Positions 8,207 to 54,346 of a DNA stretch of 64,000 nt are shown in pieces (position 1 is the stretch's first letter; every line of letters begins with the position of its first letter). A program made the position numbers and the translations under genes. Under the pieces are notes generated by a model. The model saw only the letters and a list, made by a program, of their open reading frames with translations, ran no database searches and had not been told where the DNA came from. The stretch comes from Patescibacteria group bacterium (GTDB lineage: Bacteria > Patescibacteriota > Minisyncoccia > Phycocordibacterales > UBA12445), in assembly GCA_003504275.1 (NCBI GenBank), contig DOAO01000006.1, forward strand, positions 66,588 through 130,587, in the 5' to 3' direction.

Positions 8207-8653
8207 ATGCAAAACGACACTATAAAAATAAGCAAACAACTCTTACACCAAGCCGAGCTGATGGGTGGAAATAGCGAATACGCTAAGGCTATTACAAAAC
8301 TCAACGAAGCAATCAACCATCTTGTCTATTTTTCACCACCAGAAGAGCAACAACACGAAAAAATATCGTTGTTACACCAGTGTTTCTTTGACGCAGGACG
8401 GTATCATTCTGAATTAAAACATTTTGCCACTGCGATAGAAAATTTCATTACAGCAAAGCTATTTGCTGTGTCAAAAGATAACACAGACCAATTAGATAGA
8501 TGGATTGACGGGTCTTTAGATGAGTATGAATTTTTGATACAGGAGCCAGCCACGAAAGATATCGCACTTTCTGAATTGGATGAATTGCAAGACAAATTGT
8601 TTAAAAATAACATACCCGTTCTACCTCGTATTGAGAAATTGTTAAAACAATAA
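8207..8653 (+). CDS. Hypothetical alpha-helical protein encoded between mod and res and translationally coupled to both.
   Basis: Its start is 3 nt after the mod stop. Its stop TAA overlaps the res ATG (TAATG). 148 aa, no known motif. Confidence 0.6.
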   Translation: MQNDTIKISKQLLHQAELMGGNSEYAKAITKLNEAINHLVYFSPPEEQQHEKISLLHQCFFDAGRYHSELKHFATAIENFITAKLFAVSKDNTDQLDRWIDGSLDEYEFLIQEPATKDIALSELDELQDKLFKNNIPVLPRIEKLLKQ

Positions 8654-11196
8654 TGGAAAATCTATTTTTACAGAGTATAAAAGTCAAAGTATCCGAGTGG
8701 CGAGAAAACGGGTATCAAGGAGGCTTCAAGGAGAGCATAAACATTTTGAACTATGTGAAGCGTGTCGGCTTTTTACACGAGCCACAAATTGAAGCTCTTG
8801 AAACTTATATCTATATCAAGGAGGTTTTGGAAAATAAGCCAACGGGTGAAATTTTCAAAGACGCTTTTTCAAAGAAATCCGATTTGCTTCGTTCTCTTGG
8901 TGTGCCAGAGAGAAATATTTCGGACATTATGGAAGCCGATAATCGTGACGAGCAAATAACTGAAATCATTAAGGAAAAGTTTGGTTCTCAAGATTACGCA
9001 AATCAAGTTTATGCTCTTACAATGGGTTCGGGTAAGACAATTTTAATGGCGACTTTTTTAATATACGATTTCGTTCTTTCATACTATCATCCAGACGATG
9101 CACGCTTTGCAAAGAATGCTCTAGTCTTTGCTCCCGATACGACCATTATAGAGAGCTTAAAAGAGATAAAAACTTTTGATTATTCAAGGGTCTTGCCAAA
9201 GGAATATCAGAATATTTTGCTTAACATTAAGTATCACTACCTAGAGAGCACGGAAACAGGGCTCTCTCCGATTGGTAATTACAATGTCATCGTTTCAAAC
9301 TCGCAAAAGATAATTCTCAAAACAAGAAATAGTGATACGGACAATGGGGTAAAAAAGTTATTTGGAGATAAGGGGGAACTAGCAAAGCGTGAAGTAGAAA
9401 ATGCCCGTCTGCGTGCTATCCGAGAGCTCAATAACCTCATTATATTTGTAGATGAAGCTCATCACTCTTATGGTGTGAACCTTGAGGGTGCTTTGAAAAA
9501 GACACGCCAAACAATTGATTACTTGCACGGCAATACTCCGCTTGTGGGTGTTGTAAATCTCACAGGAACACCATATCTCAATAACAGGATGATAGACGAT
9601 GTTGTATATCACTTTGGGCTCAAACAAGGTATAGAAAAAGGCATCTTGAAACAAGTGAAGATATTGGATTTCGGAGAGGTCCGCTCGGAGATTTTCATTG
9701 AAGAAGTGCTCTCTACATTCTGGTCCGAGTATGGAGAAAATCGCCTCGAAGGTCGTCTGCCTAAAATGGCTTTCTATGCTCCTAATATTGATAATTTACA
9801 AAATGAACTCAAGCCTCGTATTGAGAGAATTCTCGCTGAGATGGATATACCTATTGATAAAGTCCTTGAGTATCACACCGAAGCAGAAGACAGTAAAGAT
9901 GAGTTTCGAATACTTGATACTATAGATAGTAAGAAACAGTTTGTGCTTCTTGTTGGTAAGGGGACCGAAGGATGGAACTGTCGCTCATTGGTTGCTTGTG
10001 CTCTCTATCGTAAGCCATCTAGCTCAATTTTTGTGCTCCAAGCATCTACACGCTGTATGAGGTCCATTGGAGATAATTCTACACGAGCCCATATATTCCT
10101 CTCAAAAGAAAACTATAAGGTATTAGATAAAGAGCTTAAGAACAACTTTGCTTCAAGCATTCAAGACATCAACAACCAAGAGCAAAAGAGCTTCGAGTTT
10201 GAAATTAAAGTTGAAAAGAAAAAGACCATCAAGGTAAAAAAGCTCATCCGAGATATTATTTCCACACAGGCAACAAATACAGACGATATCAAGATTGATA
10301 TTAAGAAATATAAACCAGAGAAATACGAGCACTATATCTTGGGTTCAGAACTTGTTGTAGATACTTCTGGCAAGGCAATTTTTAAGCACGATACGCTTGG
10401 CTCAAAGAAAATAAAAGAGAGTAATTCATATACCTATTATGAAATCGTAGAGCTTATCAATCGCTACACACATTTGCCATGTTTAGCGATAGGTAAATTA
10501 TTGGAAAATATCGGATTGTCTAGGAATGAGCTAGCAAGTAAAGTGAATACGAGTGTGGGGTTTTTACCCTTCATTATTCAATCTGTTCTTGAAACTGTTT
10601 ATCAGTATACGGAAACAGAAACAGCTACCGAAGAAGAAATTGAACTTACTAAAGAATACCCGTTTAAGATGAGCCGAGAGGAGGGTAAAAAAGCCCTTGT
10701 TGTATTTAAAGAAAAAGAGGAAGCAGACGGAGCTACAAGTCGTATCGGTTTTCATATCAACCCTTATAATTTTGACAGTAGCGATGAACGGGACCTGTTC
10801 CGACAATTCCGACAGCTTCTGGTAGATAAAGAGACGATTAAGGATGTTTACTTTAATGGTGGAGTTACTACCATTGCTCACAATGATTTTTATGTTGAAT
10901 ATTGGAACCCTACAGAACAGCGTATATCCAAGTATTTTCCAGACTTTTTGATAGAAACTGATAAGGGTCGTTTCTTGGTTGTAGAGGTAAAATCTGGGTC
11001 CGAAAAGACAGAGTATGAAGCAAACAAGAAACGCTACAATGGGACCAACACATCACTCTTTAATGAGGTATATGCTAAAGAGGTTGGCTTCCTAGATTTT
11101 CAAAAAGTGAATAAGGATTTTGAATACAAAGTCATCTTTGACGCTCACTTGCAAGAAAGACAGCGAGAGCTCTTTGAGATGATTAGAACTCTGTAA
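8653..11196 (+). CDS. res: Type III restriction enzyme Res subunit (SF2 helicase plus C-terminal PD-(D/E)xK nuclease).
   Basis: Walker A is TMGSGKTILMATF. The DEAH box is IIFVDEAHHS. The C-terminal segment YFPDFLIETDKGRFLVVEVKSG matches PD...D/ExK. Confidence 0.85.
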   Translation: MENLFLQSIKVKVSEWRENGYQGGFKESINILNYVKRVGFLHEPQIEALETYIYIKEVLENKPTGEIFKDAFSKKSDLLRSLGVPERNISDIMEADNRDEQITEIIKEKFGSQDYANQVYALTMGSGKTILMATFLIYDFVLSYYHPDDARFAKNALVFAPDTTIIESLKEIKTFDYSRVLPKEYQNILLNIKYHYLESTETGLSPIGNYNVIVSNSQKIILKTRNSDTDNGVKKLFGDKGELAKREVENARLRAIRELNNLIIFVDEAHHSYGVNLEGALKKTRQTIDYLHGNTPLVGVVNLTGTPYLNNRMIDDVVYHFGLKQGIEKGILKQVKILDFGEVRSEIFIEEVLSTFWSEYGENRLEGRLPKMAFYAPNIDNLQNELKPRIERILAEMDIPIDKVLEYHTEAEDSKDEFRILDTIDSKKQFVLLVGKGTEGWNCRSLVACALYRKPSSSIFVLQASTRCMRSIGDNSTRAHIFLSKENYKVLDKELKNNFASSIQDINNQEQKSFEFEIKVEKKKTIKVKKLIRDIISTQATNTDDIKIDIKKYKPEKYEHYILGSELVVDTSGKAIFKHDTLGSKKIKESNSYTYYEIVELINRYTHLPCLAIGKLLENIGLSRNELASKVNTSVGFLPFIIQSVLETVYQYTETETATEEEIELTKEYPFKMSREEGKKALVVFKEKEEADGATSRIGFHINPYNFDSSDERDLFRQFRQLLVDKETIKDVYFNGGVTTIAHNDFYVEYWNPTEQRISKYFPDFLIETDKGRFLVVEVKSGSEKTEYEANKKRYNGTNTSLFNEVYAKEVGFLDFQKVNKDFEYKVIFDAHLQERQRELFEMIRTL

Positions 11197-49754: not shown

Positions 49755-50993
49755 TTAGTTGCTTTGGGGGTGGTCCATCAAGATAATCTTTGCTATTTTT
49801 TTAATCATTTTTCCATTCTCGGGACTCTCGTATTCAACGGTCACCATATCCCCAGCTTTTTTGTTGGAGTAAAGTAAAACCATTCTTATGTCGGCCCCAC
49901 TTTTGACGGTCTTGTTGTCGATTTTAAGTATTAAGTCGCCCTTTTTAAGTTTAGTGGTATGACCGAGAAGTGAGACTGTCTGAAAAACATTAAATTGGTT
50001 ATACTCATAAACGACAATAGCTCCTCTTTCGAAGCTCCCTTTTGCCAGTGCTATTAAATTTTTAATTTCTGTAATTTTTGTAATTTCCCTTAGTATTTCA
50101 ATATCTTCTTTGTTTACAATTATTTCTTTACCGAGTCTCGTGCTGCTACGCGGAAAGTCTTTAAGCATGGCTTCAACACCGAGACAAGGAACTTCTTTTT
50201 GTCCTTTCGCATTCTTGAGTGTCTTGAAAAGATTTATGGGAATTACGAAATTAAGATCATCGCTTGGTCCACCTTTTAACATGGCAATAACCTCACCCTT
50301 GTAATTAAAAATAGGTGAACCACTATTGCCGGGATAAAGTGGAGCCATTGTTTGTATGAAGTCTTCTAAATAACCAAAACCGATAACCCTGTGTGTTTGA
50401 CTGACTATTCCAGTCGAAAGCGTTTGTGAAAATTCGCCATAGGAATTTCCGATAGCCCATATCAAGTCGCCGGTTTTTACCAAATCAGAATTTCCAATTT
50501 TAACACCGCCATGATCTTCTTTTTTTATTCCAATACACCTTACGATTGCTGCATCAATATCATGACTGAAAGAGATAACCTCGCCTCTATACACCTTACC
50601 ATTTAAAATTATTTTGTTTGTGTATTTTTTTATCTTTATCGTTTCGGGAGGAATACCCATTAAAAAACTCATGATATCATTAGTCACGATTTCGTCGTTT
50701 TCAACTCTGACCATGTGGGCGTTCGTGTAGAGGATATTTTCTTCACCTTCAATAAAATATCCTGTTCCACGAAATCTTTGGGTTACTGCGCTGGAGACGC
50801 CATTATCATCGGTCTCCTTTTTGTCTAATTCAATGACCGTTTCAATGTCGCATATAGCGGACACATTTTCTTTAAATATCTTATTCCCAATATTTTGTAA
50901 TTCGGGAGTTGCTAAACATGGGGTTACTCCCATAGAGAAAGATACTGCCAAAATGATGGACAAACAAAGTAAAAATCTTTTACCCATAACCAC
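49755..50993 (-). CDS. htrA: HtrA/DegP-like trypsin-fold serine protease with a C-terminal PDZ domain.
   Basis: GNSGSPIF (catalytic Ser), catalytic His (TNAHMV) and Asp regions. PDZ-like C-terminus. Signal peptide. Confidence 0.7.
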   Translation of the reverse strand: MVMGKRFLLCLSIILAVSFSMGVTPCLATPELQNIGNKIFKENVSAICDIETVIELDKKETDDNGVSSAVTQRFRGTGYFIEGEENILYTNAHMVRVENDEIVTNDIMSFLMGIPPETIKIKKYTNKIILNGKVYRGEVISFSHDIDAAIVRCIGIKKEDHGGVKIGNSDLVKTGDLIWAIGNSYGEFSQTLSTGIVSQTHRVIGFGYLEDFIQTMAPLYPGNSGSPIFNYKGEVIAMLKGGPSDDLNFVIPINLFKTLKNAKGQKEVPCLGVEAMLKDFPRSSTRLGKEIIVNKEDIEILREITKITEIKNLIALAKGSFERGAIVVYEYNQFNVFQTVSLLGHTTKLKKGDLILKIDNKTVKSGADIRMVLLYSNKKAGDMVTVEYESPENGKMIKKIAKIILMDHPQSN

Positions 50994-51225
50994 ACCTCCT
51001 CAGTGAGTCTTGTTGTATGTTTTTGTTTTTGATGTTTGTTAAAGGTGCTCTTCTATAAGAATTTACATATTTTTTAATGATGTCCAAAACCCCCTCCTTT
51101 TTAATTATTTTGTTTTCAATGTTCCTTATGTTTTTAGACTATCATGTGTTAAAAATTTATGCTAGGAGGTAAAGTTTGGAGGGGAATTGGTCATGAGTAA
51201 ATTTGCTGACGCAAATTTTTGATAC

Positions 51226-51770
51226 GGGAAGAGAATCGATCACAACTCTTTTGCTTCGCAAAAGGTCGCAGCCCCGCCTCAGCTCCCATTCTTGCAGATA
51301 GCCGCGGGAGGAATCGGTCACAAACAAATCAGTTTGTGCCACGGAGAAGAATCGGTCACAGATATTTTGCTTCGCAAAATTCCGCGACCCTGCCTACCGG
51401 CAGGCAGGCCCGCCTCAGCTCCCGTTCTTGCAGAACGGGTCCCGCTTCCGGCTTTCGATTCTGATTTTTGCACTACAAAAATCATGTCGTAAGATTTAGC
51501 GCAACGAAGTTGTACTAAATTTACGACGCGTCCCGCTGGGCCGTGGGTATGTCGCGGGAGGTAATCGGTCACGAGTAGACTTGCTCCGCAAATCTCTCTC
51601 GGCCCCAGCTCAGCTCCCATTCAGCCGCGGGAGGAACCGGTCACAAGTTCCGCCTTTGGCGGACTCGCGACCCCAGCCTCGCATTCTGCTACGCAGAATA
51701 TGCTCCGGCTTTTCGATTCTCTCACGCAAGGTGTGCAGACACCTTGCTCCGCGGCACAAATTAAAAAACC
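51226..51770 (-). repeat. Array of four or more degenerate GC-rich family A repeat units adjacent to tRNA-Leu. The units end in tRNA-3'-end-like segments (GCCGCGGGAGGAATCGGTCAC versus the tRNA end GCCGCGGGAGAGAATCGAACTC).
   Basis: CGCAGCCCCGCCTCAGCTCCCATTCTTGCAGA is the reverse complement of the unit at 33620-33660. GGCTTTCGAT and AATCGGTCAC recur. The five overlapping ORFs predicted here in all frames are regarded as spurious. Confidence 0.65.
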
Positions 51771-51796
51771 CAGCAGAAGCTGGATTTTTTAATTTG

Positions 51797-51880
51797 TGCC
51801 GCGGGAGAGAATCGAACTCTCATGACCTTGCGATCGATAGATTTTGAGTCTATTGCGTCTACCAATTCCGCCACCGCGGC
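51797..51880 (-). tRNA. tRNA-Leu (anticodon CAA), class II with a 15-nt variable arm.
   Basis: Cloverleaf inferred by hand. GCCGCGG acceptor, GCGGAATTGGTAGACGC D-arm, anticodon loop CUCAAAA, T-arm GAGAGTTCGATTCTCTC. A bidirectional terminator hairpin CCAGCAGAAGCTGG lies downstream. Confidence 0.8.
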
Positions 51881-51884
51881 ATTT

Positions 51885-52121
51885 TTATGTTAAAGATTTT
51901 AAAAATTCCTTACCACATCCCGTCTTTAAATACTTCTCATGATTTCTTGCCTCTTGCCTTGTTATAAACTCTTTTGTGAATATTACCCTAAATGGTCGAT
52001 AACTTCTAGTGGTTTTTTCTTTGCCTGTGTTGTGCTGATCGAAACGCCTTTTTAAATTATTAGTAAGACCAACATAAATATAATTTTTACTTTCACTTTT
52101 AAGTGCATATATAAAAAACAT
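51885..52121 (-). CDS. Small GIY-YIG nuclease-family protein (UPF0213/YhbQ-like).
   Basis: YIYVGLTNNLKRRFDQHN matches the GIY-x10-YIG...R...H pattern. 78 aa. Confidence 0.75.
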   Translation of the reverse strand: MFFIYALKSESKNYIYVGLTNNLKRRFDQHNTGKEKTTRSYRPFRVIFTKEFITRQEARNHEKYLKTGCGKEFLKSLT

Positions 52122-52127
52122 AATTAT

Positions 52128-52183
52128 GAGTCTATTGCGCCTGTCTGCCGGTAGGCAGGTCTACCAATTCCGCCACCGCGGCA
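52128..52183 (-). pseudogene. Partial 5' duplicate of tRNA-Leu (positions 1 to ~35) carrying a 20-nt palindromic insert in the D-arm.
   Basis: TGCCGCGGTGGCGGAATTGGTAGAC[CTGCCTACCGGCAGACAGG]CGCAATAGACTC. The insert matches CCTGCCTACCGGCAGGCAGG at 51389-51411. Confidence 0.6.
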
Positions 52184-52243
52184 TTATTCAGTTGTTTAGA
52201 CAATATACAAGAAAGGGGTAATTTTTGCAAAAATAGAATACTT

Positions 52244-54346
52244 TTAAACTATTTTTAAATTTGGATACTTTTTTCTGAGTTCTTTTCCTTCGTTATAAGG
52301 GATTTGGTCGAGAAAAATATATCCACCCGCTGTTTCAGGTAGTTTCAACCCCTCAGAGGACTGGAGACTGCTAAGATTAAGATTACCACCCACTGTTTTA
52401 GGTAGCTTCAATCCTTCTGCTGATAGGAGATTGCTGAGATAAAGATTACCACCCACTGCTTCAGGTAGCTTTAACCCTTCGGCGGATTGGAGGCTACTGA
52501 GGTAAATATCACCATTTATTGTTTCTGTTAGTTTCAACCCTTCAGCGGATTCTAGACTACTGAGATTAAGATTACCGCCCACTGTTTCCGGTAGTTCCAA
52601 TCCTTCAGCGGATTCTAGACTACGGAGATCAAGAGATCCACCCACTGCTTCAGGTAACTTCAATCCTTCGGCGGATTGAAGATCGTTTAGATTAAGATTA
52701 CCACCCACTGTTTCCGGTAGTTCCAATCCTTCAGCGGATTCTAGACTACGGAGATCAAGAGATCCACCCACTGCTTCAGGTAACTTCAATCCTTCTGCTG
52801 ATAGGAGATTGCTGAGATAAAGATTACCACCCACTGCTTCAGGTAGCCTCAATCCTTCGGCAGATTTTAGACTACTGAGATCAAGGCTAGTACCCACTGC
52901 TTCAGGTAGCTTCAATCCTTCGGCAGATTTTAGACTACTGAGATCAAGGTGTTCGCCTATTTTTTCTGGAAGTTCCAATCCTTCTGCAAAACGGAGGCCA
53001 CGAAGAGACAACCCTCTACCGATTATTTTCGGTAATTTCAAATCTTTGGCAGATTCTAGCCCATCAAGACTAAGACTACCACTTATTCTTTCTATAAATT
53101 TCAATCTGTTAATCGACTCAATTTTATAAAGACGAAGACCGCCGTAATGAAACTTAATTCCTTCACACATAGCTTCCTTTTCTGTGCCTATACTAATTTC
53201 TTCTTCAAGATAACCGGTTATCGAAGAGAGGTCTGCTTTAATTTTCCTACCTTTCGTTATCTCCTCAGTCCTTGGATCTTCTCCATATCCAAACCCTTCA
53301 ATCCTTGAATCTAGCTGATACAAAAAGGTAAGATCGTCTTTCGTCAGTTCTTCTCCTTTTGCTTTTTTCTTGTCTATCTCGGTAAGCTTCTTCATATCTC
53401 TCTCTTTCTTTTCATACTTCGCGCCGTCGGGAAATTCCTTAAGCTTACTCTTTACAACCTCACCAATATATGGATCGAGATTTTGTTCTTTAGCGATACC
53501 TCTCACTTCTCCAATTTTTGAATCACTCATACGAATAGCAACCCTGGGGATAGTGGGCTTACCTTGTTTATCGTTGGAGTAATAGACATAGAAGTCTCCG
53601 CCTTCAAGTTGAATTTTGGCTGTTGATTCTCCTGCAGTACACCATCCGGTACCATGACCTTGGAGTGATTCTACGAGTGGCATGTGATCAGATTTCTGAG
53701 GATATTTAATCCACCTTCCTTCAGTGTTCAGTAATTCATTCTCTTCTGTCGGTGTTACTTTTTCGATAGCATAGGCGTAGAGTTTACCGAAGTTTGAACC
53801 TTCAAGAAGTTTCTTAAATTCAGGATTATTTTCTATGTCCGGTATTTCTTCATTACCGGCTTTTTTGACAATGGCATCTACTACATAGGCGAGTGCTTCG
53901 CGATTGAGATCGGGAAATGGAGCGACAGTACCTTTATCTCTCTTACCAAAGGCATGTTTCTCTTTGTCGAAGGTAGATAGCTTGAGCATATTATTAAATG
54001 CCCAGTATTTAGCCCACATAGGATAACTATCTGAATCAGGAGAGGAGAGGTAATTGACCCAATTGTCTAATGTAGAGTTTTGGTCATTGATGATTACTTC
54101 GCTCAGCTGTTCTTTTGTCTCGTCGGTAATCTCAATATCGCCGTGTCCTTGTTCACGAGCTAATCTTTTTTGATTGTCATAATAGCTTTCAGGAATGTCT
54201 TCTGGTTTAATGACATATTCTTTGTGATAATGTTCCTTGATTCTTTCTAATACTCTAGGGTCATCTCTATGTCCTGTGTGAGTTCTTTTGATGACTTCTA
54301 GGAAGTCAGAGATCTTGTCTATCGGTTTTTTGTGAGATTTCTTCAC
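52244..54346 (-). CDS. Leucine-rich-repeat protein with about 12 tandem 23-aa LRR units (L.L..L.SAEGLKLPEAVGG.L) in the C-terminal half and a unique N-terminal domain.
   Basis: The repeats are read directly from the translation. No signal peptide is obvious. Confidence 0.7.
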   Translation of the reverse strand: MKKSHKKPIDKISDFLEVIKRTHTGHRDDPRVLERIKEHYHKEYVIKPEDIPESYYDNQKRLAREQGHGDIEITDETKEQLSEVIINDQNSTLDNWVNYLSSPDSDSYPMWAKYWAFNNMLKLSTFDKEKHAFGKRDKGTVAPFPDLNREALAYVVDAIVKKAGNEEIPDIENNPEFKKLLEGSNFGKLYAYAIEKVTPTEENELLNTEGRWIKYPQKSDHMPLVESLQGHGTGWCTAGESTAKIQLEGGDFYVYYSNDKQGKPTIPRVAIRMSDSKIGEVRGIAKEQNLDPYIGEVVKSKLKEFPDGAKYEKKERDMKKLTEIDKKKAKGEELTKDDLTFLYQLDSRIEGFGYGEDPRTEEITKGRKIKADLSSITGYLEEEISIGTEKEAMCEGIKFHYGGLRLYKIESINRLKFIERISGSLSLDGLESAKDLKLPKIIGRGLSLRGLRFAEGLELPEKIGEHLDLSSLKSAEGLKLPEAVGTSLDLSSLKSAEGLRLPEAVGGNLYLSNLLSAEGLKLPEAVGGSLDLRSLESAEGLELPETVGGNLNLNDLQSAEGLKLPEAVGGSLDLRSLESAEGLELPETVGGNLNLSSLESAEGLKLTETINGDIYLSSLQSAEGLKLPEAVGGNLYLSNLLSAEGLKLPKTVGGNLNLSSLQSSEGLKLPETAGGYIFLDQIPYNEGKELRKKYPNLKIV
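52300..53010 (-). repeat. Tandem 69-bp repeats that encode the LRR units. They are not CRISPR.
   Basis: Near-identical 69-nt periodic units lie within the CDS, for example GATTACCACCCACTG(T/C)TTC(A/C)GGTAG(C/T)T(T/C)CAATCCTTC(A/G/T)GC(G/T)GAT. There are no separate spacers. Confidence 0.8.

Follow-up and report, generated by a model that had tools for sequence, protein, structure and literature searches.

The free-standing GIY-YIG endonuclease SegB of T4/T6-like phages cuts inside transfer RNA (tRNA) genes at RAWTSGAAC, a motif matching the T-loop sequence, and it drives the recombination-dependent amplification, in tandem, of the segment composed of segB and a tRNA gene (PMC13096335). Judged by analogy, SegB appears to be the closest known counterpart, and the best precedent, for the locus described here. 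The locus lies in a 64,000-nucleotide (nt) stretch of contig DOAO01000006.1 (positions 66,588 to 130,587) from a Patescibacteria group bacterium, hereafter the window. It consists of a 78-amino-acid GIY-YIG open reading frame (ORF) situated between an intact tRNA-Leu(CAA) gene and a partial copy of this gene that is interrupted by a 20-nt palindrome (PAL). We propose, with about an even chance of being right, that the locus belongs to a widespread family of selfish, homing-type nuclease cassettes which reside at tRNA-Leu genes and would spread by recombination through tRNA-Leu homology. The family is apparently undescribed: the literature searched, including a search with the palindrome string, contains no description of such an architecture, its coverage omitting many subscription journals.

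Like segB, the GIY-YIG genes of the window family are found among tRNA genes (adjacent to tRNA-Leu in 76 of the 80 loci considered below) and form tandem arrays of nuclease gene plus tRNA piece, with PAL marking exactly D-loop and T-loop positions. However, SegB is phage-borne and associated with many tRNA types, whereas the window family is chromosomal, 78 amino acids long, and tied to tRNA-Leu; its ORFs are also accompanied by a partial tRNA copy and a conserved 20-bp palindrome, features not reported for SegB. Furthermore, SegB is about three times longer than the window ORF and has a DNA-binding region.

Other described systems share individual features with the locus. Members of the UPF0213 family (YhbQ, BH0048, EF2693) are of the same single-domain size and provide the best profile and fold matches, and Slx1 is a structure-specific nuclease active on flaps, stem-loops, and junctions, an activity that, by analogy, would suit a hairpin-forming palindrome. 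Slx1 differs in that it works with Slx4 and has a RING domain, and the variable side, tandem copies, pseudogenes, and cross-phylum mixing of the window family are behaviors of a mobile element, unlike those of UPF0213 or Slx1. The UPF0213 literature searched makes no mention of tRNA genes, tRNA fragments, or a cognate palindrome. With I-TevI and the group I introns of tRNA genes, the cassette shares the GIY-YIG core, the use of an essential, conserved gene as home site, and, in the case of PAL, a precise interruption without target duplication, as a homing insertion would produce. Nevertheless, it has no linker, DNA-binding domain, or ribozyme, and the PAL insertion is non-splicing, so that function is saved by a second, intact tRNA copy. 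As in the REP/REPIN-RAYT systems, in which the linked gene can also stay at one locus for long, a short, GC-rich, dispersed palindrome is linked to, and adjoins, one small nuclease-type gene. Here, however, the partner is a GIY-YIG protein rather than an HUH/Y1 transposase, and PAL is identical across phyla rather than lineage-specific, inserts into tRNA loops, and is not dispersed in the window. Finally, integrase-encoding islands and prophages likewise use tRNA genes as landing sites, leave a partial tRNA duplicate, and preserve an intact tRNA, but in these elements, which are kilobases long, a tyrosine integrase causes the duplication of the 3′ part, whereas the cassette carries no recombinase, measures ~0.3 kb, and can duplicate either end of the tRNA, the duplicate bearing PAL.

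On the minus strand of the window, the cassette and its promoter-like site are laid out as follows.

52230..52202, minus strand: sigma-70-like promoter, consensus match TTGCAA-17 nt-TATATT, ~20 nt upstream of the tRNA fragment
52182..52160, minus strand: tRNA-Leu 5′ fragment, part a, GCCGCGGTGGCGGAATTGGTAGA, corresponding to nt 1-23, 23/23 identical to the intact tRNA at 51880..51858
52159..52140, no strand assigned: PAL copy 1, the 20-nt palindrome CCTGCCTACCGGCAGACAGG, exactly between tRNA nt 23 and 24
52139..52123, minus strand: tRNA-Leu 5′ fragment, part b′, nt 24-36 exact and to nt 40 with one mismatch
52121..51885, minus strand: 78-amino-acid GIY-YIG ORF, catalytic domain only, ATG at 52121
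51880..51796, minus strand: intact tRNA-Leu(CAA), called by ARAGORN and matched over its full length by Rfam RF00005 (60.1 bits, E = 3.8e-12)

A preliminary description of the locus had recognized the ORF between a partial and a complete, intron-less tRNA-Leu(CAA), the end of the duplicated part in the anticodon loop, and the palindromic insert in the D-arm, and these observations stand with small corrections: the partial copy starts at 52182, position 52183 being one base too far, and the palindrome does comprise 20 nt, one more than the 19 letters spelled out at the time. Part a covers the acceptor 5′ strand and the D-arm up to the D-loop/stem junction; PAL copy 1 follows, with neither target duplication nor deletion at its site, and the tRNA sequence resumes with CGCAATAGACTCA at 52139..52127 (13/13 identical to nt 24-36). 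Part b′ stops in the anticodon loop, 1 nt ahead of the ATG, which is preceded by a few AT-rich bases. PAL copy 1, CCTGCCTACCGGCAGACAGG, departs from the cross-phylum consensus CCTGCCTGCCGGCAGGCAGG by 2 mismatches and, when folded as single-stranded DNA, reaches -4.7 kcal/mol versus -8.0 kcal/mol for the consensus. The intact tRNA-Leu(CAA) begins 4 nt past the ORF stop codon and is contiguous and uninterrupted. Both duplicated tRNA blocks were recovered in a repeat search of the window (families D4 and D6). The Rfam covariance model did not detect the partial copy at E values up to 10, as expected because the fragment is truncated and interrupted; its direct identity to the neighboring tRNA therefore settles its origin as a genuine tRNA-Leu 5′ fragment. 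Two contigs from other samples match this structure in every base (three independent assemblies in all), and an assembly artifact is therefore excluded.

The same architecture recurs in distantly placed hosts. From more than 553 matching loci, we took 80, one genome per species, which were retrieved using only protein patterns derived from an alignment of homologues, and the neighboring DNA is therefore unbiased. A tRNA-Leu gene on the same strand adjoins the ORF in 76 of the 80 loci (ARAGORN), with anticodons CAA, CAG, GAG, UAA, and UAG, and the remaining four are mostly cut off by contig ends. The hosts belong to Saccharibacteria, Parcubacteria, Gracilibacteria, Chitinophagales, Cytophagales, Ignavibacteria, Balneolales, Nitrospirae, Omnitrophota, and other groups. 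Forty-five loci have the upstream layout of the window, that is, tRNA-Leu 5′ fragment, ORF, and intact tRNA-Leu, the latter starting 0-25 nt after the ORF stop codon, and 24 have the mirror layout of intact tRNA-Leu, ORF, and tRNA-Leu 3′ fragment. The partial copy lies on the side of the ORF opposite to the intact tRNA, and a fragment combined with PAL is present in 70 of the 80 loci across phyla. The cassette is, in short, a minimal GIY-YIG gene (~78 amino acids) with a supernumerary partial tRNA-Leu that carries PAL in its D-loop or T-loop, the ORF being located between the PAL-interrupted copy and the intact tRNA-Leu. In the 45 upstream-layout loci, the fragment starts at tRNA nt 1, and its end varies between nt 24 and nt 71; several tRNA-Leu(CAA) loci of candidate phyla radiation (CPR) bacteria (L004, L007, L044, and L073) have a junction near nt 40 in common.

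The junctions bear on the interpretation given in the preliminary description, namely, that an integrative element with its own tRNA 5′ half had entered a defined site in the anticodon loop, or that the duplication was a classical target-site duplication of fixed length, either of which we now regard as very unlikely. The window copy does end in the anticodon loop, and the junction near nt 40 is shared with the four CPR loci. Moreover, in L020, L024, L076, and L080, the acceptor stem of the fragment is unlike that of the adjacent tRNA, which suggests, on sequence grounds, that the two differ in origin and is consistent with a fragment that moved together with the ORF. However, end points scattered from nt 24 to nt 71 and the existence of the mirror 3′ layout are at odds with an insertion point in the anticodon loop, the duplication has no set length, and PAL is left unexplained, so that this interpretation is largely refuted by the variable junctions. 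Neither an integrase nor a recombinase is encoded at the locus, the sole ORF between the repeats being the 78-amino-acid nuclease on an insert of ~240 nt. The attachment-site structure of an integrative element is likewise lacking: the duplicated piece is the 5′ part of the tRNA, and no recombinase gene accompanies it.

The palindrome is the most regular companion of the ORF. PAL, with the 20-nt consensus CCTGCCTGCCGGCAGGCAGG, is perfect in 33 of the 80 loci; in 70 loci, PAL or a PAL-like sequence is no more than 130 nt away from the ORF, and PAL is found in 43 of the 45 loci with the upstream layout, whereas the flanks of all 80 loci (213 kb) contain just 6 further copies located more than 400 nt from the ORF. 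In the upstream layout, PAL follows tRNA nt 14/15 or 22/23 (nt 17 once and nt 31 once), with the tRNA resuming at the next base, and in the downstream layout it occupies T-loop positions 53/54 or 59/60; its insertion into the extra copies entails no duplication and no deletion. Among supernumerary D-arms, 46 are interrupted by PAL versus a single uninterrupted one, which has PAL in the anticodon loop instead, and in L078 both the D-loop and the T-loop of one pseudo-tRNA carry PAL. PAL sits on the side of the ORF away from the intact tRNA, at a distance of 12-61 nt upstream or 9-95 nt downstream, and asymmetric variants of PAL are found in either orientation with respect to the ORF. In the Algoriphagus loci L013, L056, and L040, the 3′ fragment has its T-loop hairpin 90-130 nt past the ORF, with the sequence CGTGCC-GAA-GGCACG in two species and CATCCC-GAA-GGGATG in the third; these two compensatory pair changes hint that the structure of the hairpin, and not only its sequence, is maintained.

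Two further explanations of PAL were considered and rejected: a fixed-distance operator, given the spacing of 9 to 95 nt on either side of the ORF, and a sequencing adaptor artifact, given the mutated variants, the occurrence in isolate genomes (Algoriphagus marincola DSM 16067), and the non-random placement in tRNA loops beside the ORF. PAL-bearing tRNA-Leu genes of other kinds were also seen. A full-length tRNA-Leu(CAG) in L051 (1837-1940) carries a T-loop PAL, and the 3.2 kb examined contain no intact CAG gene; in L067 (2470-2750), two tandem tRNA-Leu(GAG) genes each have a D-loop PAL and their own terminator.

Orthologous tRNA clusters of different Bacteroidota are polymorphic for the presence of the cassette at a conserved home site. 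For the Gly(GCC)-Leu(UAA) cluster, L067 has the empty state, L018 and L028 are occupied on the upstream side, and L043 and L081 on the downstream side. For the Thr-Leu(GAG)-Leu(CAG) cluster, the ORF comes after the GAG gene in L029, L057, and L083 and after the CAG gene in L051. The ORF thus behaves as a mobile-type GIY-YIG gene, as had been surmised, its presence, absence, and position varying at orthologous tRNA-Leu loci; in this respect, the earlier interpretation, which as a whole is only partly supported, has held. Units of composition a-PAL-b′-ORF form tandem arrays with periods of 297 nt (x3, L082), 461 nt (L050), and 366 nt (L022), tandem units are also found in L064, L043, and L081, and some of the ORF copies are frameshifted, truncated, or interrupted by stop codons. 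A neighbor-joining tree of 81 ORFs is star-like, with phyla, anticodons, and layouts intermixed, and therefore supports neither strict vertical descent nor clean isoacceptor lineages.

Because they are not free to mutate, tRNA genes are ideal home sites for selfish DNA, and yet a non-splicing insertion would destroy such a gene, a problem that the cassette family appears to solve by keeping one intact tRNA and placing the nuclease gene beside a disabled partial copy. Under the homing explanation that we favor, the nuclease would nick or cut either tRNA-Leu gene sequence or PAL-associated hairpin DNA, and the break would be repaired by homologous recombination, with the tRNA-derived flanks of the cassette serving as portable homology arms. 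The ORF and/or PAL would thereby be copied, in a homing-like manner, into tRNA-Leu genes of any isoacceptor and any host. Partial and tandem duplications would be products of the same repair, and selection would retain one uninterrupted tRNA, with PAL ending up in every copy that is dispensable.

Several points weigh against this explanation. The role of PAL and the cleavage specificity, including the choice between tRNA loop and PAL as the target of the cut, are what we infer rather than observe. If uninterrupted loops are cut, the adjacent intact tRNA and other tRNA-Leu genes would be targets too, and no immunity mechanism can be seen, as the intact copy and the fragment do not differ in sequence around the PAL site. 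The 78-amino-acid catalytic domain has no obvious sequence-specific recognition module, and its nearest relatives, UPF0213 and Slx1, are non-homing enzymes. Homology-driven homing also leaves unexplained the copies of PAL found elsewhere, which are mostly solo and outside tRNAs. Throughout Algoriphagus and within several Bacteroidota families, the cassette has kept a single locus, which fits domestication too, and no closely related empty site corresponding to the window was found among metagenome contigs searched via the neighboring HtrA-like protease.

The product of the window ORF matches Pfam PF01541 (GIY-YIG) over residues 1-67 with 64.8 bits against a cut-off of 22.6 (E = 8.8e-18); the catalytic residues Y5, Y16 (YVG), R26, and E62 are invariant in 35 homologues, and H30 is conserved in at least 90% of them. 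In the AlphaFold (AF2) model (predicted local distance difference test score of 97), the strands and helices of the GIY-YIG alpha/beta core follow in the expected order; the nuclease fold is intact, and the core fills the entire 78-amino-acid protein, with no linker or DNA-binding domain. A profile search against the PDB ranked the UPF0213 structures 1ywl (E = 3.3e-7) and 1zg2 (E = 1.1e-6) first, Slx1 next, and I-TevI after these. Similarly, Foldseek ranks 1-8 are taken by 1zg2 and Slx1 (27-34% identity, template modeling score up to 0.71), I-TevI appearing lower (17-22% identity) and UvrC N-terminal domains being matched as well, so that, among known structures, UPF0213 BH0048 and the nuclease domain of Slx1 come nearest. 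With NCBIfam TIGR01453 (group I intron endonuclease), the score of 24.3 bits stays below the cut-off of 56.05. Judged from profiles and the model, the protein is a bare catalytic domain that is UPF0213/Slx1-like rather than I-TevI-like, which answers the question, raised in the preliminary description, of homing endonuclease versus UPF0213 type.

These matches could be taken to mean that the gene is a housekeeping UPF0213-type nuclease in an operon with tRNA-Leu, next to a junk fragment and palindrome, and the intact ORF, AT-rich like its host, would agree with this view. We find it hardly credible, together with the related notions of a degenerate group I intron or homing remnant and of an assembly artifact. 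The fragment with PAL recurs in 70 of the 80 loci across phyla, copies are arrayed in tandem, decayed, or pseudogenized, the occupied side varies, no Rfam group I intron family matches positions 50900-52400 even at E = 10, and the three independent assemblies are identical. The genomic behavior is that of a selfish element, not of a housekeeping gene.

In a number of public gene calls from this family (P0004, P0082, P0025, P0091, and P0048), the protein has N- or C-terminal extensions, such as '...AELVDLPA...GRQA...' and 'LPAGRQ', which are the translated tRNA-Leu fragment and palindrome; P0004 and P0082 begin with translated tRNA and palindrome. Such extensions are a systematic annotation artifact for this GIY-YIG family, arising as annotation pipelines read through the fragments.

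Outside the cassettes, perfect copies of PAL were collected from 35 viral-contig stretches and at least 120 metagenome-contig stretches (at least 155, ~1.0 Mb), and the following figures apply among the matches listed. Most perfect copies are solo, intergenic, and outside tRNAs. About 5% of the stretches have a GIY-YIG ORF of the window family next to PAL and ~95% do not; the ~1.0 Mb of PAL-bearing DNA, an unbiased sample, holds 12 such ORFs, 7 of them within 100 nt of PAL, and this is the only recurrent non-phage gene family near PAL. A few PALs lie in D-, variable-, or T-loops of tRNAs for Lys, Arg, Asn, Ser, Val, Ala, and Met, and some of these PAL-bearing non-Leu tRNAs adjoin related GIY-YIG genes. 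Across 165 combined sites, neither a target consensus nor a general flanking duplication is apparent at solo PALs. When a lenient rule was applied to the small viral set, flanking direct repeats seemed enriched (18% versus 0.6%), but they amounted to 2.4% in the combined 165 sites; with the enrichment gone, a general target-site duplication of PAL was rejected. Placement of solo PALs in the loops of larger hairpins was not supported either (12.8% versus 6.5% at random).

The solo copies lend some weight to an alternative akin to the REP/RAYT systems, which we nevertheless consider rather unlikely. According to this alternative, PAL is a mobile 20-bp hairpin, the GIY-YIG protein is a structure-specific partner nuclease of PAL, inherited for the most part vertically, with its gene residing at tRNA-Leu, and the fragments are by-products of hairpin insertion and local recombination. 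Besides the abundance of PAL in at least 155 other stretches, ~95% without an adjacent ORF and mostly outside tRNAs, and the singular recurrence of the GIY-YIG family near it, such a view would be consistent with the predicted Slx1-like fold, i.e., that of a structure-specific nuclease, and with the fixation of the ORF at one locus across Algoriphagus, where hairpin pairing is kept through two compensatory changes. The same fragment/ORF junction can also be combined with different D-loop positions of PAL, as in L044 compared to the window, L004, L007, and L073. On the other hand, PAL is essentially confined to the cassette in the window and the 80 loci, and the location of the ORF at tRNA-Leu in 76 of the 80 loci, on either side and in tandem and pseudogenized copies, is left unexplained. 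The lack of a target consensus and of flanking duplications at solo PALs also counts against this alternative, and we know of no transposition chemistry for a lone GIY-YIG domain.

A broader formulation, possible but held tentatively and with less confidence than the homing explanation, is that PAL and the minimal GIY-YIG protein represent an unrecognized cross-phylum class of mobile DNA, in which an Slx1-like nuclease lacking a DNA-binding domain of its own copies or inserts a 20-bp hairpin into tRNA loops and other sites, with no duplication of the target, the nuclease gene nesting between the intact tRNA and the PAL-disabled copy. There is a fair chance that the nuclease-palindrome pair is a new kind of mobile DNA. 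PAL is sequence-identical from CPR bacteria to Bacteroidota and Nitrospirae. If the link between nuclease and palindrome is true, the pair, a 78-amino-acid enzyme with its 20-bp site, would offer a tiny, tractable system in which to study target finding by a bare GIY-YIG domain. It would also account for the arrays of tRNA-gene fragments and the odd 'tRNA-like' repeats of streamlined genomes, and PAL would be a handy marker in the search for such cassettes.

Among 2.9 million viral contigs, no relative of the window ORF family was confirmed save for an ORF of 42% identity in L115. In this viral contig (478-3014), a tRNA-Lys(UUU)-like 5′ fragment with a D-loop PAL precedes the GIY-YIG ORF. Past the ORF, the 5′ part of the tRNA recurs and is broken after nt 33 by inserted DNA with genes for an HNH-motif protein and a serine recombinase. 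Cassettes of this type therefore exist at tRNAs other than tRNA-Leu, and similar cases lie beside tRNA-Lys, -Arg, -Asn, and -Ser fragments in L162, L168, L191, and L212. In two further viral contigs (L108, 2239-2330; L085, ~8570-8660), a tRNA-Met contains PAL in its variable loop and is still called by ARAGORN as a 92-nt tRNA.

Returning to the window, a minus-strand scan of positions 51000-52400 found the site at 52230..52202 as the sole promoter-like site, with none between the ORF and tRNA-Leu. This site is probably the original tRNA-Leu promoter, from which the fragment, ORF, and tRNA may be co-transcribed, placing the ORF in the 5′ leader of the tRNA precursor. Such a transcript raises the possibility of a role at the RNA level, which we deem improbable: the transcribed fragment and PAL hairpin would form a leader or trailer of the nuclease messenger RNA and aid its stabilization or processing. 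In the boldest form, which is also the bolder variant of the nuclease-palindrome proposal, tRNA piece, PAL hairpin, and tRNA piece would be transcribed as a split guide directing the nuclease to tRNA-Leu genes. Apart from the position of the promoter-like site upstream of the fragment, with none before the ORF or the tRNA, several features agree with a role in RNA: PAL lies at the outer end of the presumed transcript, on the side of the ORF away from the intact tRNA; the flanks are nearly identical to the local tRNA; the protein has no DNA-binding domain; and the changes in Algoriphagus preserve the hairpin. However, fragment length and the distance between PAL and ORF vary, asymmetric variants of PAL occur in both orientations to the ORF, PAL-bearing full-length or tandem copies in L040 and L067 have no ORF alongside, and no Rfam family matches. 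An RNA-guided GIY-YIG enzyme is, to our knowledge, not known.

On the 3′ side of the window tRNA lies a further set of tRNA-derived repeats, comprising the following features.

51749..51804, no strand assigned: inverted repeat with 26-nt arms, 96% complementary (pair I1)
51170..51757, minus strand: GC-rich array of tRNA 3′ ends (repeat families D1-D3)
51389..51408, no strand assigned: PAL copy 2, CCTGCCTACCGGCAGGCAGG on the plus strand, 1 mismatch to the consensus, inside one array unit (pair I2)

The outer parts of the inverted repeat are the tRNA-Leu 3′ end and its inverted copy, and its core (51770-51783) is a bidirectional terminator-like hairpin. In the array, the tRNA-Leu 3′ end occurs in diverged form at least 6 times in direct and 2-3 times in inverted orientation; all same-strand matches map to tRNA nt 66-85, and the GC content is ~55% versus 37% for the window. 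The array also includes many short hairpins with GAA/GCAA-type loops (TTTTGCGAAGCAAAA twice, ATTCTGCGTAGCAGAAT, CCGCCAAAGGCGG, and CCCGTTCTGCAAGAACGGG), and no remnant of a GIY-YIG ORF was found in 51170-51757. The second copy of the palindrome, already noticed in the preliminary description, is confirmed at 51389-51408; the 64-kb window has 2 copies of PAL, both at this locus, against 0 matches in 100 shuffles of the window. The array resembles the runs of 3′ fragments in L040, L022, and L013 and can be read, from its sequence, as probable debris of earlier duplication events on the 3′ side. The 45 nt that follow the inverted repeat contain an inverted T-arm piece divided by another palindrome, of 22 nt, GCAAGGTGTCTGCACACCTTGC.

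Contig L003 (660 nt), which comes from another sample, is identical to the window through the tRNA 3′ end, after which its tail (613-660) diverges completely. This 48-nt tail has no match in the window and is thus not readable as a simple deletion variant; it suggests strain-level structural variation directly 3′ of the window tRNA. The upstream neighbor of the locus (52244-54346, minus strand) encodes a 700-amino-acid protein without a Pfam match, the C-terminal half of which is a run of ~22-residue repeats (…LESAEGLKLPEAVGGNLDLSSL…).

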